In this document: positions 5,080-14,034 of the stretch, one piece after another | Layout: every line of letters begins with the position of its first letter | Numbering within the stretch: position 1 is the stretch's first letter | Notes under the pieces: generated by a model | The model's input: the letters and a program-made list of their open reading frames with translations, nothing else | The model's database searches: none | What the model was told of the DNA's origin: nothing | Translations under genes and position numbers: made by a program | Origin: Pseudomonadota bacterium | GTDB taxonomy: Bacteria; Myxococcota; JACRCW01; JAFGSX01 | Length of the DNA: 64,000 nucleotides | Direction: 5' to 3' | Assembly (NCBI GenBank): GCA_043821645.1 | Contig: JBDRCO010000134.1 | Location: 1 to 64,000 of the forward strand

Positions 5080-5955
5080 TCAGCCGCCGGCTTCGGAGAG
5101 CTGGGCCAGGGCCTCGAGTCCCTTGCCGGCACGGCCGCGCCGCACGTCCTCGTGCAGGCCGCGCAGCTCGTCGCTGACCGGGGCGCGCACCTGCAGTCGC
5201 TTGCCCGCCTCGAGCAGGCTCACCGCGAAGCGCGACACCATGGTCTGGGGCACCACCTGCGCCAGGTAGGTGCCCAGGGCGTGGCGGTCGATCCCCGCGC
5301 CGGCACCGAGCTGCAGGCGGGTGATGCCCTGGCCCGTGCCAAGGCCGGTGACCACGTCGCCACCCATGGCGATCAGGCCCAGCCCGCGGCTCCAACCCTG
5401 GGCCTGCCGGGCCTTGCTGGTGCGGCGTTGCACGGTGGGCACGTCGAAGGGCATGGCGCCGTGGGCCGCCGAGCGCAGCAGCTTGGTGCGGCGGTTGTTC
5501 CAGGCGATGCGCCCGCGCACCTTGGACATCTGCGCGCGCAGCTCGTCGAGAACGGGGCGTACCGTGGTGAGCTGCTCGCTCGCGAAACCTGTGCGCACCA
5601 GGCTGTCGACCACACTCTCGGCGCTCTGCTTGAGGGTCTGGAAGGTGGTGCCCAGGCGGGTGTTGTTCTCGTCGATGGCGCTGAGCAGATTGGTGAGCTG
5701 GCTGGTGCGATCCCCCGCGGCGCCGACGGTGTCGCGCAGATCCGGGATGCTGTCGCCACTCGAGCCCGTGGTCGGCAGGCGTCCCAGCAGCTTCTGCTGG
5801 CTGGCCCCGATCTCGAAGGCGTCGGTGGTGGGCTCCTGGGCCTTCGCCGGGAGCCCCTTCTTGGCTGCCTTGCGCCGTTCCGAGGCGCGGGTCGACACCT
5901 GCTGGCGCGGGGTCTTGGGACTCTTGGGGCCGATTCCGCCGCTGCGAATGGTCAT
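5080..5955 (-). CDS. Hypothetical protein, candidate T3SS-secreted substrate (disordered N-terminus, coiled coil)
   Basis: Start MTIRSGGIGPKSPK; divergent from sctU; preceded by the shared promoter-like motif. Confidence 0.65.
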   Translation of the reverse strand: MTIRSGGIGPKSPKTPRQQVSTRASERRKAAKKGLPAKAQEPTTDAFEIGASQQKLLGRLPTTGSSGDSIPDLRDTVGAAGDRTSQLTNLLSAIDENNTRLGTTFQTLKQSAESVVDSLVRTGFASEQLTTVRPVLDELRAQMSKVRGRIAWNNRRTKLLRSAAHGAMPFDVPTVQRRTSKARQAQGWSRGLGLIAMGGDVVTGLGTGQGITRLQLGAGAGIDRHALGTYLAQVVPQTMVSRFAVSLLEAGKRLQVRAPVSDELRGLHEDVRRGRAGKGLEALAQLSEAGG

Positions 5956-6005
5956 GCTGAACCTCGTCTCCAGGGTGCCCGGGACAGACACCACGCCACC
6001 CTTGG

Positions 6006-6033
6006 GTATCGTCGACAGGTTACTTTTGGTTGC
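6006..6033 (-). promoter_or_regulatory. Putative alternative-sigma (FliA/sigma28-like) promoter GCAAC-N17-CGATAC
   Basis: Reverse strand reads GCAAC caaaagtaacctgtcga CGATAC, about 50 bp upstream of the 5955 start; two similar copies nearby. Confidence 0.55.
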
Positions 6034-6212
6034 CCGGATCGTCAAACGCGTCGGGGTGTTGCGGCCAGGGCTCCTTGACGATGTCGGCCGCCCGGGCTTA
6101 GCTTGGGGGCGCGCCACGTCGTCGCGGACGTGTGCCACGGCCGGATCCCCGCGAGGGGCGAGAGGCCCGTTCGCCATGCCGGTGACGGGCAAGCAGCAGG
6201 GACGGACCACGC

Positions 6213-7277
6213 ATGGGCGACGGCGGCACCGGCGAGAAGACCGAGGAGGCGACCCCGCAGCGCCTGCAGGAAGCGCGCAAGAAGGGTCAGGTGATGAAGA
6301 GCCAGGACGTGCTCGCGGCGTTCGGCTTCATCATCACCTTCAGCGTCCTCGCCCTGATCATGGGCTCGACCCTGGACCAGCTGCGCGAGTTCATCCTCGC
6401 CTGCATCTACGCCGGCACCGGGAACGGAGGCCTCCCCGCCGTCGTCAACACGACCTTCAAGGCGCTGACCTTCACCCTCATCCTGGTCATGCCGATCCTG
6501 GGAGCGGCCTTCGTCGCGAGCGTTGCTGCCAACTACGCCCAGGTCGGGTTCATGTTCACCACCCACCCGCTCAAGCCCGACATCAAGAAGATCAATCCGA
6601 TCTCCGGGCTCAAGAGCATGTTCTCGAAGAAGAAGGTGGTCGAGCTCATCAAGCAGCTGCTCAAGTTCAGCATCATCACCTACGTGTGCTACAGCGCGGT
6701 CAAGGACAGGATCCGCGACGTCGTGGTGGCGGTACGGGTGCCGCTCGAGAACTCGATGCTGCTGGCCGGCGAGATCATCTACGACCTGGCCATCAAGGTC
6801 GCGGCGGTCTTCATCGTCATCGCCTTCGCGGACTTTCTCTACCAGCGCTACCAGTTCAAAAAAGATATGATGATGTCCAAGTACGACGTGAAGCAGGAGT
6901 ACAAGCAATCCGAGGGCGATCCGGAGATGAAGGGCCAGCGCAAGGCCCTGGCCGAGGAGCTGATCATGCACGGCTCGCAGCAGAACGTGGCCAATGCCGA
7001 CGCCGTGGTGACCAACCCGGCACACATCGCCGTGGCCATCAAATATGACAAGGAGAAGGGCGGGGCGCCCCAGGTGGTGGCCAAGGGTCTGCGCAAGCAC
7101 GCGGACAAGATCAAGGAAATCGCTCGACAATCCGGCGTTCCCATCCTGCGCAACGTGCCCCTGGCGCAGGCCCTGAACAAGCTGGAGATTGGCGAGGACA
7201 TCCCCGAGGAGCTTTTCGAGGCCGTGGCCGAGGTGCTCAACTTCGTCTACGAGCTGCAGGAACAGAAGAAGATCTGA
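6213..7277 (+). CDS. sctU: Type III secretion export apparatus switch protein, SctU/EscU/YscU/FlhB family
   Basis: GEKTEEATPQRLQEARKKGQV, four TM segments, VKQEYKQSEGDPEMKGQR, NPAH cleavage-site motif, IPEELFEAVAEVL. Confidence 0.95.
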   Translation: MGDGGTGEKTEEATPQRLQEARKKGQVMKSQDVLAAFGFIITFSVLALIMGSTLDQLREFILACIYAGTGNGGLPAVVNTTFKALTFTLILVMPILGAAFVASVAANYAQVGFMFTTHPLKPDIKKINPISGLKSMFSKKKVVELIKQLLKFSIITYVCYSAVKDRIRDVVVAVRVPLENSMLLAGEIIYDLAIKVAAVFIVIAFADFLYQRYQFKKDMMMSKYDVKQEYKQSEGDPEMKGQRKALAEELIMHGSQQNVANADAVVTNPAHIAVAIKYDKEKGGAPQVVAKGLRKHADKIKEIARQSGVPILRNVPLAQALNKLEIGEDIPEELFEAVAEVLNFVYELQEQKKI

Positions 7278-12114: not shown

Positions 12115-12783
12115 ATGGCGACCAAGAAGAAGGCCTCCAGCAAGAAGAAGACCGAGACCACCGGCAAGCCCAAGGAGGCCAAGAAGGCCAAGGCCGCCGG
12201 CGCCGACGAGGACGAGGACACCATCTACACCCCCGAGCAGCTGCTCGAGATGGTGGAGAAGGGTGAGATCCAGCCGGACTACATCGACGAGCCACCCAAC
12301 ACGATGACCGAGGAGAACTGGGAAAAGTTCGTCGTCGGTGAGATCACCTGGGCGCAGCTCGAAGGCATGACGATGGAGGAGGCCTACGCCATCGCCGACC
12401 TCGGCTACACCTTCTACGAGCAGGGCAAGTACGACGACGCCCAGACCATCTTCGAGGGTCTGGTCATCGGCAACCCGTATGACGGGTACTTCCACACCAT
12501 GCTCGGCGCCATCTACGCCAAGAAGGACATGCACGAGGAGGCGGCCGAGGAGTACTCGATCGCCATCGAGCTGGATCCCGAGAACATCGCCGCCTACGTC
12601 AACCGCGGCGAGCTGCTGCTGCAGCACGGTGAGTTCGAGTACGCCATGGACGACCTCAAGGCCGCCATCGAACTCGATCCCAATGGCGAGGACCCGTCGG
12701 GCATCCGCGCCCGCGCTCTGGCTGCGGCCACCGCTGCCATCATCAAGGAGATCCTCGAGAAGAAGGGCATGGCCCCCAAGTAA
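12115..12783 (+). CDS. Second SycD/LcrH-like TPR chaperone with Lys-rich/acidic N-terminal extension
   Basis: ITWAQLEGMTMEEAYAIADLGYTFYEQGKYDDAQTIFEGLV; GGGGAGA RBS; paralogous to 7882-8340. Confidence 0.85.
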   Translation: MATKKKASSKKKTETTGKPKEAKKAKAAGADEDEDTIYTPEQLLEMVEKGEIQPDYIDEPPNTMTEENWEKFVVGEITWAQLEGMTMEEAYAIADLGYTFYEQGKYDDAQTIFEGLVIGNPYDGYFHTMLGAIYAKKDMHEEAAEEYSIAIELDPENIAAYVNRGELLLQHGEFEYAMDDLKAAIELDPNGEDPSGIRARALAAATAAIIKEILEKKGMAPK

Positions 12784-12808
12784 TCGGATCGCCTGATCTT
12801 TGACTCAC

Positions 12809-12841
12809 ATCCCCGGGGTTCGCGCCCCGGGGATTTTTTTT
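12809..12841 (+). terminator. Rho-independent terminator
   Basis: ATCCCCGGGG-ttcgcg-CCCCGGGGAT followed by a T run. Confidence 0.88.
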
Positions 12842-12900
12842 GCTTCGAGCGTGCCCCGGGCCAGGTCTCCCGGTGCCCGGAGCCATGCTATCGTTCAGCC

Positions 12901-14034
12901 ATGGAGCCGCACCTGCAGCTTGGCTGGCACCTGCGGCAGCGCATCCTGCCCGCGCTGGCGCGCATCGATGGCCTGGAAGGCGAGCTACCACGGGTCGCAC
13001 AGGTGGTCCGGGGGCTGGTGGGCGGGGACCTCGATTTCGACCTGCGCCAGGGGCCGCGCCATCCGAGCAACCTGTGCGAGGCCCAGGCGAGCCTGGAGTT
13101 GGCCTATACCTTTGGTGGGCGCGAGCAGTGTGGCCTGCGCTACTCCACCGAGCCGCTGGCGCCTCGCGGTGTGCTGCGCAATCGCTACACGGTGTTTCGC
13201 GATCGCCTGCTGCGGCTGATGCGCGAGCTGGCGCCTGGCTATGACGTGGCCCTGTTGCAGCGGCTGTTCTTCGTCGGCGTACCGCGCCGGGCGGCCGCGG
13301 ACACGGATACCACGATCACCATCGCCGCGGTGCACCACTACCGGGATAGACCGCCGCGGCTCAAAGCCTACTTCAGCTGCGACTGGGACAACCCCGGGCG
13401 CGCGCGCGCCTCGGCCCAGGCCCTGATCGGGCAGGCGGGCAGCGACGAACTCGAGGCCCAGGCCCGCACGTTTCATCGCTTCTACAGCCCCCAGGGTGGC
13501 GTGCGCATGGTGGGCTTCGACTTCGAGCCCGGGCGCGCCGTCGAGGTCAAGCTGTACAAGACCGGGGAGGGTTTGCGCCCTCGATCCCTTGCACGCCTGA
13601 TCGAGGAAGCTGGTGGCGGGAGTGAGGCGCAGCAGGGTGTGCAGGTGTTCCGGGACGTATTCCTCGACGGAGCGACCGATCCCGCGCTGTTCGATCTGGT
13701 GTCGAGGGCGCTGCGGCGCGGCGGTGGGCCGGGCCTCAAGCTCTACATCCGGCCAGCCGACCTGTACGACGACGCCGAGGCGCTGCGCCGCCTGCGCAAC
13801 TGGTACGGCTACCTGGGCAAGACAGAGGAACTGGCCATGGTGGAGCGCGGGCTGGCGACGGTGGCGCCGCTCGAGGTGATCGGGGCCACGCGTGGCTTCT
13901 TCAACTACTTCTCCGTCGACGTGGGGCACCACGGCGTGAGCAAGACCAGCGTCTACTACACACCCCAGATCCCGCTCATGCACCTGGCCCGTCACGATGC
14001 TGGACGCCTGCAGGAGCTCGCCGCAGAGGTCTGA
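12901..14034 (+). CDS. ABBA-fold aromatic prenyltransferase (Trp-DMATS / LynF-like)
   Basis: SNL..ASLELAYTF..LRYSTEP, repeated K-x-Y strands (RLKAYF, EVKLYK, GLKLYI, KTSVYY), VGFDF, YFSVD. Confidence 0.65.
   Translation: MEPHLQLGWHLRQRILPALARIDGLEGELPRVAQVVRGLVGGDLDFDLRQGPRHPSNLCEAQASLELAYTFGGREQCGLRYSTEPLAPRGVLRNRYTVFRDRLLRLMRELAPGYDVALLQRLFFVGVPRRAAADTDTTITIAAVHHYRDRPPRLKAYFSCDWDNPGRARASAQALIGQAGSDELEAQARTFHRFYSPQGGVRMVGFDFEPGRAVEVKLYKTGEGLRPRSLARLIEEAGGGSEAQQGVQVFRDVFLDGATDPALFDLVSRALRRGGGPGLKLYIRPADLYDDAEALRRLRNWYGYLGKTEELAMVERGLATVAPLEVIGATRGFFNYFSVDVGHHGVSKTSVYYTPQIPLMHLARHDAGRLQELAAEV

Follow-up and report, generated by a model that had tools for sequence, protein, structure and literature searches.

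Which secretion system is served by the genes around an isolated sctU gene, what does this system export, and do the enzyme genes next to it take part? These questions are raised by a stretch of 64,000 nucleotides (the window) from a Myxococcota genome (GenBank assembly GCA_043821645.1, contig JBDRCO010000134.1). Here sctU, the gene for the export-switch protein of non-flagellar type III secretion systems (T3SSs), is followed on the plus strand by seven further genes up to position 14034. The window is contig C134 of an assembly with 140 contigs and 7.07 Mb (completeness 94.7%, contamination 3.95%).

The module is of an already known kind: its genes correspond to those that fill, as a conserved run, the space from sctU to sctV in the T3SS* cluster of Myxococcota. 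New are a family of proteins with an axial-type tail that is encoded beside chaperones, the expansion of this family in the lineage, and the linked genes for putative Fe-S proteins and a prenyltransferase. We hold with moderate confidence that the region is a detached fragment of a secretin-less, non-flagellar T3SS*, with a chaperoned axial-tail substrate and with enzymes which likely modify that substrate. The features on which this reading is based are as follows.

6213-7277, plus strand: sctU, non-flagellar export-switch protein (PF01312, E=5e-116; TIGR01404, 363.1 bits)
7350-7826, plus strand: h158, small helical protein of 158 aa, likely start at 7371; positional counterpart of MXAN_2452
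7882-8340, plus strand: TPR1, SycD/LcrH-like class II chaperone (TIGR02552, E=1.4e-22; SctY model, E=1e-10)
8599-9864, plus strand: Gly421, candidate exported T3SS* substrate of 421 aa (20.9% Gly, 8.1% Met, no Cys)
9736-9861, plus strand: C-terminal helix of Gly421 (residues 380-420), putatively of needle/rod (axial) type; a helix in the model, the protein ending in MQMAAVRNLR
10063-11223, plus strand: cys386, with an N-terminal helical part and a domain with 8 invariant Cys; the open reading frame (ORF) is open from 9985
11223-12008, plus strand: cxxc261, YkgJ/CxxCxxCC-family protein (PF03692, E=2e-6, 28.8 bits vs a cut-off of 23)
12094-12783, plus strand: TPR2, SycD/LcrH-like chaperone with a Lys-rich N-terminal tail (TIGR02552, E=3.6e-26)
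12901-14034, plus strand: PT377, predicted DMATS-type ABBA aromatic prenyltransferase (AlphaFold2 model, Foldseek)

Because the window is rich in G+C (0.62-0.72), raw ORF lists are crowded with frames that are not genes; 14 kb yield 82 ORFs with a length of 70 aa or more. Genes were thus chosen by their G+C content at the three codon positions, which favours a single set of two minus-strand and eight plus-strand genes at 3915-14034, and were identified by scans of the Pfam and NCBIfam libraries. The eight plus-strand genes had been picked out in a preliminary description of the region (5080-14034), and all of them were found on the strands given there.

SctU and the scattered secretion system

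The product of sctU exceeds the cut-off of the non-flagellar family TIGR01404 (363.1 vs 358 bits) and stays below that of the FlhB family TIGR00328 (344.5 vs 349.25 bits). The FlhB score is nearly as high as the SctU score and flagellar genes are present in the genome, which would speak for a flagellar flhB gene, or a decaying relic, among unrelated neighbours. It is hardly conceivable, however, that sctU is either of these. The flagellar cluster on contig C86 has an flhB gene of its own, with a product that shares no more than 31% identity with the window's SctU and carries the autocleavage motif NPTH. In SctU the motif is NPAH (residues 268-271, window positions 7014-7025), and all six non-flagellar SctU orthologs from Myxococcota that were examined have NP[A/D/E/S]H. 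The gene has a G+C content of 0.91 at third codon positions (GC3). Its product is 77% identical in G001, a genome of the same family, and 43-66% identical across the phylum, where intact orthologs (E<=1e-60) are found in 233 of 401 genomes, a tally that takes in the unpublished genome G195. The preliminary description was thus right in not regarding the protein as FlhB.

Flagella are unusual in Myxococcota. The complete export and motor cluster at C86:40598-55459 consists of motAB, fliM, fliN, fliO, fliP, fliQ, flhB, flhA, flhF, flhG and fliA, and fliR was found by genome search. The same 64-kb contig also has NikA/MobC and relaxase genes (59084-61415). We note that C86 could be a mobile element or a contamination.

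Whole-genome searches with Pfam families revealed two T3SS export sets, the flagellar one on C86 and a non-flagellar one that is scattered over the three contigs C87, C70 and C134. C87 has an FHA/SctD (YscD)-like gene and genes for SctN, an SctO (YscO)-like protein, a FliK/SctP-like protein (C87:272116-273084; Flg_hook, E=4e-6), SctQ, a FliO-like protein, SctR, SctS and SctT, with SctJ-like and FliG-like genes on the opposite strand. Neither SctU nor SctV was found at this locus by the family searches, and SctV is encoded alone on C70. Within the window, scans of the other ORFs (5 flanking and 26 further ones) gave no T3SS or flagellar domain, which confirms that it holds no further sct or flagellar gene. 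The term "detached", used in the preliminary description for a substrate and chaperone set beside a non-flagellar sctU, fits this genome, since its sct genes are scattered over separate contigs, with sctR, sctT, sctV and sctJ all elsewhere. A side observation, at C87:261582-263566, is that a FliG-like gene (FliG_M, E=6e-7) adjoins the SctJ-like gene of the non-flagellar locus.

The sctU-to-sctV interval in other Myxococcota

In G001 the entire run is collinear, from two divergent genes before sctU up to the start of the prenyltransferase gene. In the genome G003, from another family of the same class, neither sctU nor the CxxCxxCC gene is present at the locus, which does contain the genes for h158, TPR1, the Gly and 8-Cys proteins, TPR2 (81%) and a prenyltransferase (30%). 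In G032, sctU is followed by an h158-like gene, TPR1 (58%), a 438-aa Gly-like gene and TPR2 (61%), and then directly by sctV. The order in G112 is a homolog of g405, the outer of the two divergent genes (39%), then sctU, h158, TPR1 and a Gly-family gene; in G013, sctU is accompanied by a 142-aa gene, then by genes for a TPR protein and a member of the Gly family.

Two further clusters connect the window to well-studied species. A Stigmatella-like genome, with proteins that are letter-for-letter identical to Stigmatella aurantiaca records, has sctRSTU, an FlhB-C-terminal-like gene, a 159-aa gene, a TPR gene, a 196-aa gene, a gene for a DUF1521 protein, a second TPR gene, five tandem 72-aa genes with a Gly421-type tail, another TPR gene and, further on, sctV. 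The same frame is found in an M. xanthus-like genome, with proteins identical to Myxococcus xanthus records. There the 165-aa gene is MXAN_2452, the TPR protein is named LcrH/SycD chaperone, the DUF1521 protein is in a 90%-identity cluster represented by MXAN_2458, and two identical 74-aa hypothetical genes (Q1D9J3) precede sctV on the opposite strand. The SctU of the window is 43-45% identical to the SctU of these two clusters. In both of them an extra gene of 93-94 aa comes after sctU (L030:3562-3843, L068:1488-1772); it resembles FlhB/SctU in the C-terminal domain alone (PF01312 positions 260-335, E=1e-28, from a scan of the Stigmatella-like gene) and is absent after sctU in the window.

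Since its gene order is shared with the T3SS* cluster MXAN_2434-2464, the window contains the sctU-proximal part of that cluster, cut off from sctRST and sctV. The loci of G032 and of the Stigmatella-like and M. xanthus-like genomes show that the islet of the preliminary description is neither new nor free-standing. With the M. xanthus T3SS* (the non-flagellar system termed "Myxo" by Abby and Rocha 2012) it shares an orthologous sctU (43%), an MXAN_2452-like protein, LcrH/SycD-named chaperones and small tail proteins, all before sctV. It differs in four respects: the system is split over three contigs; the tail protein has 421 aa and four full-length paralogs, compared to 72-90 aa in M. xanthus; two Cys-cluster genes and a prenyltransferase gene are inserted; and the DUF1521 protein with its TPR partner is found on a fourth contig. 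According to the literature, SctF is missing in Myxo systems (Abby and Rocha 2012), these systems branch at the root of the non-flagellar T3SS (PMC3459982), and Myxococcus xanthus requires T3SS* to lyse its prey, the substrates of T3SS* and its route through the envelope being given as unknown (PMC10433427, PMC12075869).

The small protein h158 has no Pfam or NCBIfam family in the library scans. Its homologs directly follow sctU in G001 (63% identity), G112 (41%), G032 (29%) and G052 (28%), and the homolog in G003, where sctU is lacking at that place, is 51% identical.

For both TPR proteins the best NCBIfam family is TIGR02552, although their scores (79.9 bits for TPR1, 91.5 bits for TPR2) are below the curated cut-off of 104.8 bits. 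TPR repeats were found in TPR1 by Pfam; for TPR2 the scan covered NCBIfam alone and gave families of TPR proteins. TPR1 is 41% identical to an M. xanthus-like protein which NCBI names a SycD/LcrH family chaperone, and the earlier designation of the two proteins as SycD/LcrH-like is upheld. TPR2 is the most conserved gene of the module (95% identity in G001 and on metagenome contig L066, 81% in G003, 61-66% in G032 and G052), and TPR genes also occur between sctU and sctV in other genomes. An arrangement of three-TPR class II chaperone genes beside presumed substrates and sctU/sctV resembles the LcrH/SycD-YopB/YopD system and, in the Ysc family, YscX-YscY next to sctV, the latter also by the match of TPR1 to the SctY model (E=1e-10). 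It is distinguished from them in that Pfam and NCBIfam scans found no substrate of YopB/YopD type or YscX type here, and from LcrH/SycD in that both window proteins miss the curated cut-off. A complex prediction for TPR1, TPR2 (residues 70-229) and Gly421, run without controls, scored 0.24, the mark being 0.32.

A third LcrH-like TPR gene (250 aa, Lys-rich tails) follows a gene for a 415-aa DUF1521 protein (PF07481, E=1.3e-10) at C22:57470-59663. In the Stigmatella-like and the M. xanthus-like genome, such a pair of genes is part of the T3SS* cluster. The genes on C22 are another substrate and chaperone pair that has become detached. VIC_001052 is homologous to the T3SS-secreted NopE1/NopE2 (PMC6506597). 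These proteins have the self-cleaving domain DUF1521 in common, which is also that of the C22 protein. The C22 protein is encoded outside the window, and a relationship to Gly421 was rejected (hhalign probability 0.6%).

A putative axial-type tail in Gly421

The homologs of Gly421 are 48 unnamed proteins (E<=0.001) from metagenomes and metagenome-assembled genomes. In an alignment of 29 sequences (A1), conservation is seen in the N-terminal region, in a core with the motif DGRxDG..TV and in a helix with the sequence LSFEDxLFLMMMKYAxKKEKEI. A Gly-rich loop that resembles a glycine zipper is variable, and a near-invariant tail ...SDTLKQMQMQKLMEDLKKMYEMLSNVMKSMHDMQMAAVRNLR is the end of the protein. 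The AlphaFold2 model has helices at residues 259-287 and 380-420, with about 90 disordered Gly-rich residues between them. Four further full-length paralogs are encoded in the genome (on C82, C123, C69 and C94), and two longer proteins share only the tail (633 aa on C23, 650 aa on C139). In addition, Gly421 has a segment of 60 residues in its middle part in common with a protein with LysM and annexin repeats that is encoded on C43.

The tail was analysed by itself, as a set and a profile (A4) made from the last 70 codons of 27 members from 24 genomes. When this profile was compared to all PDB sequences, the best match was 7y6c_F, a 43-residue chain of a T3SS needle/co-chaperone entry (E=3e-5); the next match had E=0.027, and YscF (2p58_B) was reached at E=1.1. 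When the tails were scanned singly against Pfam, the family T3SS_needle_F (PF09392) was found in 14 of 27 at E<=1 (best 2e-6), and the next family in three. NCBIfam gave the SctF model TIGR02105 for eight of the tails (best 2.7e-5), FlgF for four and FlgB for two. The tail of the window (last 70 residues) matches PF09392 with E=0.01 (16.4 bits vs a cut-off of 29.4) and the C-terminal end of the rod protein FlgF with E=0.044. We read the tail as a real but distant member of the superfamily of T3SS axial proteins, while Gly421 itself would not belong to the SctF family. The Gly-rich protein had been described as filament-like, and a helix of needle/rod type at its C terminus is consistent with this.

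The likeness could be a compositional or coiled-coil artefact, the family being linked to sctU in some other way, e.g. as regulators. Every match is short (about 40 residues) and helical, and 13 of the 27 tails have no PF09392 match even at E<=1. The M. xanthus 74-aa protein matches the profile A4 only with E=1e-3 and, with phmmer, finds nothing relevant in PDB. Finally, a wide VIA-align search with the whole Gly421 model gave only generic long-helix matches (best Z 6.6), with EspA (1xou) and FlgN (5b3d) inside the background at Z 5.2. Against this stands that two independent libraries rank T3SS axial families first by number of members, that the matches align to the C-terminal end of the models and stop at the C terminus of the proteins themselves, that the best PDB match is from a needle/co-chaperone entry and precedes the next by the distance given above, and that the tail genes adjoin T3SS chaperone genes. 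We consider an artefact very unlikely.

The second explanation accepts the tail and changes its role. The family would consist of secreted effectors or of pore-forming, translocator-like proteins, with the tail as a handle for the chaperone and the glycine zipper inserting into the target or outer membrane. Class II SycD/LcrH chaperones classically serve translocators, and in solved needle/chaperone complexes a TPR-like co-chaperone grips the C-terminal helix of the needle protein; 7y6c is itself a needle/co-chaperone entry. The paralogs (363-650 aa) retain the tail but differ from one another in their N-terminal parts, and the 633-aa protein from C23 has a Gly-zipper_Omp match (E=8e-6). The Atlas neighbours include a Myxococcota cluster with NolX in 12% of its members, which is a lead only (score <0.9). 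Yet the models matched by the tails are those of needle and rod proteins themselves (SctF in 14 of 27 by Pfam and 8 of 27 by NCBIfam, besides FlgF and FlgB), the T3SS* clusters of G149 and of the Stigmatella-like genome have needle-sized versions of 72-90 aa as tandem genes, and the glycine-rich loop is missing in several members of the family. On this evidence we regard the effector or translocator role as unlikely, and an axial-type substrate is preferred.

Several observations weigh against an axial-type substrate as well. No single match of the window tail attains the curated cut-off of a family, and the whole Gly421 matches PF09392 only with E=1.5. The protein has 421 aa rather than 70-90 aa and no tight helix-turn-helix hairpin, and its model, computed from A1, is poor (pLDDT 55, pTM 0.25). 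It is uncertain which molecule of 7y6c was matched, because the entry labels the 43-residue chain as a co-chaperone. The four full-length paralogs and the two tail-only proteins are located among unrelated genes, none of them beside T3SS genes. Reviews up to 2025 describe T3SS* as having no needle or translocon homologs (PMC10433427, PMC12075869).

In comparison with the needle protein SctF (YscF-YscE/YscG, PscF-PscE/PscG) and the inner rod protein SctI, Gly421 shares a predicted amphipathic C-terminal helix that reaches the last residues, tails that match SctF models and a chain of the needle/co-chaperone entry, and TPR-type chaperone genes alongside. It differs by a window tail that is below the cut-offs, by the lack of a short helix-turn-helix hairpin, by a fivefold length and by 21% Gly; in addition, no outer-membrane secretin has been described for T3SS*. 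A PF09392 search of the genome found no canonical needle gene, its best matches (E=0.07) being the Gly421 paralogs, and phmmer searches of PDB with Gly421 and with profile A1 gave only artefacts of Gly linkers. Earlier work on Myxo loci may have given the name SctI to some members of the tail family. In a search of the literature on Myxococcus T3SS, SctF and predation, we found neither the tail family nor the linkage of the enzymes described, the primary T3SS* paper of 2022 and supplements lying outside that search.

There is a weak hint that Gly421 is transcribed: the groundwater metatranscriptome X8 has one 218-nt contig that equals 9199-9415 with one difference, which may be a carry-over of DNA. 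Otherwise the RNA runs X8 and X9 hold only partial pieces of 30-37 nt.

Linkage of the tail family to sctU

A profile of the family matched 178 of the 401 genomes at E<=1e-5, mostly with its C-terminal half. Linkage was counted from the best 150 of 306 family matches and the best 150 of 241 matches to SctU orthologs. There are 52 genomes with both, and in at least 24 of these a family match is located on the same contig within 10 kb of sctU. These genomes span ten families (f1, f6, f10, f11, f12, f19, f21, f23, f25 and f28) and, among the matches listed, the family gene is downstream of sctU in every same-strand pair. For the other 28 of the 52 genomes, the matches listed fall on separate contigs or at a large distance from each other, which is a further point against the proposed reading. 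The count of 24 is a lower bound, as many of the unlinked assemblies are fragmented and at most four candidates were scored per genome.

With the tail profile alone, two or three tail-bearing frames of 90-95 aa were found in each of five complete f11 genomes (E from 1.9e-8 in G149 to 1e-3 in the M. xanthus-like genome). They are 2-7 kb from sctU in all four genomes with a listed sctU position. Each of the five also has a tail-bearing frame of about 200 aa (359 aa in G213), which is about 13 kb from sctU on its other side in those four genomes; this frame may be what was formerly designated the inner-rod protein SctI.

The Cys-cluster proteins and the prenyltransferase

The genes for the putative enzymes are separated from Gly421 and from each other by two hairpins, which had been noted near 9890 and 12809 and are indeed terminator-like.

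9888-9916, plus strand: terminator-like hairpin after Gly421 (13-pair stem with 9 G-C pairs, then a T run)
12809-12834, plus strand: terminator-like hairpin after TPR2 (11-pair stem with 8 G-C pairs, then a T run)

The total of seven terminator-like sites is not above that of shuffled sequences (mean 4.0, sd 2.2). No such site is found on the plus strand between cys386/cxxc261 and TPR2, and the GTG start of cxxc261 overlaps the TAG stop of cys386 by one base (TAGTG). Thus cys386, cxxc261 and TPR2 are one unit between the two hairpins.

The protein cys386 has eight Cys that are invariant in 21 sequences (C196, C199, C211, C212, C248, C256, C267 and C272 in the numbering of the 412-aa form). They are arranged as C-x2-C-x11-CC ... 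C ... C ... C ... C in the middle of the protein, a YkgJ-like pattern of an uncharacterised family. Library scans of the 386-aa and 412-aa forms gave no Pfam or NCBIfam match. The protein is rare, with nine representatives at E<=1e-10 among 1.84 billion proteins and an occurrence in 3 of 41 related genomes (G000, G001 and G003); the 386-aa form is found letter-for-letter in Atlas. Its weaker relatives are uncharacterised Cys proteins of about 200 aa, and none of the ten that were scanned has a Pfam family. The motif of cxxc261 is C-x2-C-x3-CC, and the identity of the protein is 61% to its counterpart in G001 and 59% to that on metagenome contig L066. A relationship between the two Cys-cluster families was considered and rejected: hhalign gave a probability of 2% with only the Cys pattern aligned, and BLASTP found nothing.

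The two proteins had been called FliB-like. Neither of them matches any NCBIfam family at E<=0.01, which includes the FliB model (presumably NF038110), so that membership in the FliB family is not borne out and a likeness to this flagellin lysine methyltransferase of Salmonella is limited to more general features. Cys-cluster proteins are encoded beside an axial-type T3SS substrate, and FliB has eight conserved Cys, cys386 eight invariant ones. The spacings differ, with C-x2-C-x11-CC in cys386 and C-x2-C-x3-CC in cxxc261 vs C-x4-C-x3-CC in FliB. FliB has a [4Fe-4S] cluster, eight conserved Cys and the N-terminal motif C-x4-C-x3-CC, and modifies flagellin, a T3SS axial substrate, in the cytosol (PMC8598068).

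PT377 is predicted to be a prenyltransferase with a DMATS fold. An AlphaFold2 model from 18 homologs is good (pLDDT 91, pTM 0.90), and in a Foldseek search it matched 6-DMATS, CymD, 5-DMATS, TleC, IptA, DMATS1 and PriB over the full length (E 2e-12 to 1e-10, TM-scores 0.69-0.78). The best match was 6zrx (E=2e-12, TM-score 0.74 by query and 0.78 by target). There were 125 matches at E<=0.001, and all 31 among those listed are aromatic prenyltransferases. Matches at the sequence level are weak: TIGR03429 with E=1.4e-6 (27.9 bits vs a cut-off of 163.85), PF11991 with E=0.022 (14.5 bits vs 25) and, with profile A2 against PDB, DMATS1 at E=0.012. Nine of the 21 other proteins listed among its relatives have a precomputed PF11991 match. 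Invariant Lys/Arg and Tyr residues on the strands of the barrel (K155/Y157, K217/Y219 and K280/Y282/R284) are presumably those that bind the diphosphate. PT377 thus resembles the bacterial DMATS-type enzymes 6-DMATS, CymD, 5-DMATS/SCO7467, TleC, IptA and PriB in its full-length ABBA barrel. It differs from them in an identity of only 15-20%, in scores below the Pfam and NCBIfam cut-offs, and in the linkage of its gene to genes for T3SS chaperones and substrates rather than to natural-product genes.

Are these three genes part of the module or its passengers? The preliminary description had named as a point of doubt that the Cys-protein and prenyltransferase genes might never be syntenic with T3SS genes, and they are syntenic in G001, in G003 and on a metagenome contig. 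The order of the Cys gene, cxxc261, TPR2 and the prenyltransferase gene is collinear in G001 and G003, with cxxc261 missing in G003, and on L066 the genes for cxxc261, TPR2 (95%) and the prenyltransferase (57%) are collinear. As far as gene order within a single class is concerned, the link of the enzymes is thus real. Apart from this class, one metagenome contig is the sole source in which they were found in the module, and of the genes of the module only these three are lineage-specific. A scan for the prenyltransferase gave three loci in genome contigs, all short, and one locus in metagenome contigs.

G003 has a second prenyltransferase paralog (L053, G003:C368:1-9000), an 860-aa protein which is fused to a hexapeptide-repeat domain. 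Its gene is 180 bp from, and divergent to, that for a second paralog of the Gly family. The neighbours are genes for a 799-aa protein with DUF6365 and a TylF-type O-methyltransferase, for a nucleotidyltransferase and for a CrtC/lipocalin protein, so that L053 looks like a modification island beside a structural gene.

If they were passengers in a rearranged locus, the Cys pair would be redox or metal proteins and PT377 a small-molecule indole prenyltransferase, none of them acting on T3SS substrates. Much of the evidence against a functional link can be read in this way. By tblastn, the three genes are absent from the loci of G032, G112, G013 and the Stigmatella-like and M. xanthus-like genomes, and four other families examined lack them in the module; a genome-wide search found no prenyltransferase in G002, G013 and G112. 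Homologs with 53-56% identity are located in unrelated contexts on two other Myxococcota contigs (L028, with a nuoH-like gene, LolA and radical SAM; L026, with a giant Ig-like protein). The hairpin after TPR2 places PT377 in a terminator-bounded unit of its own. The closest structural matches all act on tryptophan or indole, the second prenyltransferase of G003 is surrounded by tailoring-type genes for small molecules (the TylF-type methyltransferase, nucleotidyltransferase and CrtC-like lipocalin domains), and DMATS-type enzymes are known for acting on small molecules and peptides and are not known to act on proteins.

Other observations speak against passengers. The genes cys386 and cxxc261 share an operon with TPR2, as judged from the stop/start overlap and from the lack of a plus-strand terminator-like site. 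The order cxxc261/cys, TPR2, prenyltransferase is kept in four sequence sources, even though the identity of the prenyltransferase goes down to 30-57%. The prenyltransferase gene adjoins a Gly-family gene at two separate loci of G003. Finally, cys386 and the prenyltransferase co-occur in G000, G001 and G003, while neither was found in G002 and G013. It seems to us somewhat unlikely that the enzymes are passengers, and an action on the T3SS* substrate is preferred.

Proposed role of the module

We propose the following order of events. The TPR chaperones would keep Gly421 and its paralogs export-competent in the cytoplasm and pass them to the export gate. The Cys pair, which would be translationally coupled and made from one operon with TPR2, and PT377 would most likely act before export on the substrate or on its complex with the chaperone, as FliB does on flagellin; this suggestion is based on gene linkage and on the analogy to FliB. 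T3SS* would then export the Gly421 family under substrate switching controlled by SctU. Beyond the inner membrane, the axial-type helix may dock on the export apparatus or polymerise from it, and the large N-terminal part with its glycine zipper may be displayed or inserted. The FliK-like ruler gene on C87 (Flg_hook, E=4e-6) fits an axial structure of controlled length. The region had been described as a T3SS module that makes a filament and chemically modifies it, perhaps for predation. A substrate and chaperone module is what was found, while the modification and the role in predation have the standing of suggestions.

A more far-reaching idea can be put forward only tentatively, and we think it unlikely to hold in full. 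The "needle-less" T3SS* may have axial parts after all, in the form of a phylum-wide tail family of exported substrates that polymerise or dock. In the groundwater lineage of the window, these would have grown to 400-650 aa with payload-like N-termini and would be modified before export by DMATS-type prenylation and by FliB-like Fe-S proteins. If this is true, it would be the first protein-directed prenylation by a DMATS-type enzyme and the first modification system for an axial protein of a non-flagellar T3SS.

The module is of fair interest because it provides testable candidates for the unknown substrates of T3SS*, namely the tail family, including the 72-90-aa cluster genes of cultivable model species, the MXAN_2452-like proteins and the DUF1521 proteins. 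The linkage of genes for Fe-S proteins and a prenyltransferase points to a step in which the substrate is modified, for which no counterpart has been described except with flagellin. As the Myxo systems branch at the root of the non-flagellar T3SS (PMC3459982), the tail family also bears on the origin of the injectisome from flagella.

Flanking genes and further observations

The unit divergent from sctU contains two genes, which complete the gene set of the region.

3915-5132, minus strand: g405, conserved gene without known function, second gene of the unit divergent from sctU (GC3 0.89)
5080-6210, minus strand: g376, divergent gene without known function, 376 aa (GC3 0.85; G+C at first codon positions exceeds that at second positions on this strand)

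Library scans gave no Pfam or NCBIfam family for either of them. The likely start of g405 is near 5003, as its homologs align from residue 44; they are 65% identical in G001 and 39% identical in G112, and in both genomes are likewise found beside sctU. The protein g376, which had been taken for a candidate substrate, has an N-terminal third that is basic and rich in Pro, Ser and Thr. It is 45% identical in G001, and G112 has a family-less ORF of 280 aa at the same position. According to the family scan, uvrB precedes the module, and the minus-strand genes znuB, znuC and znuA come after it.

Elsewhere in the window, a protein with Zn_ribbon_4 and GYF_2 domains is encoded at 21591-23624, and a smaller protein of the same architecture adjoins the Gly421 paralog on C94 (L062:4099-4887). 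Two giant proteins are of surface type: one of 2498 aa (49615-57111) with about 15 cadherin-like repeats, FG-GAP and Ig domains, and one of 1732 aa (28565-33763) with a LysM domain.

DNA that is nearly identical to window positions 6000-14100 is present in the groundwater metagenome run X1 (0.88 of sampled words), and a partial presence was found in biofilm metagenome runs of another study (X2 0.39, X3 0.24).

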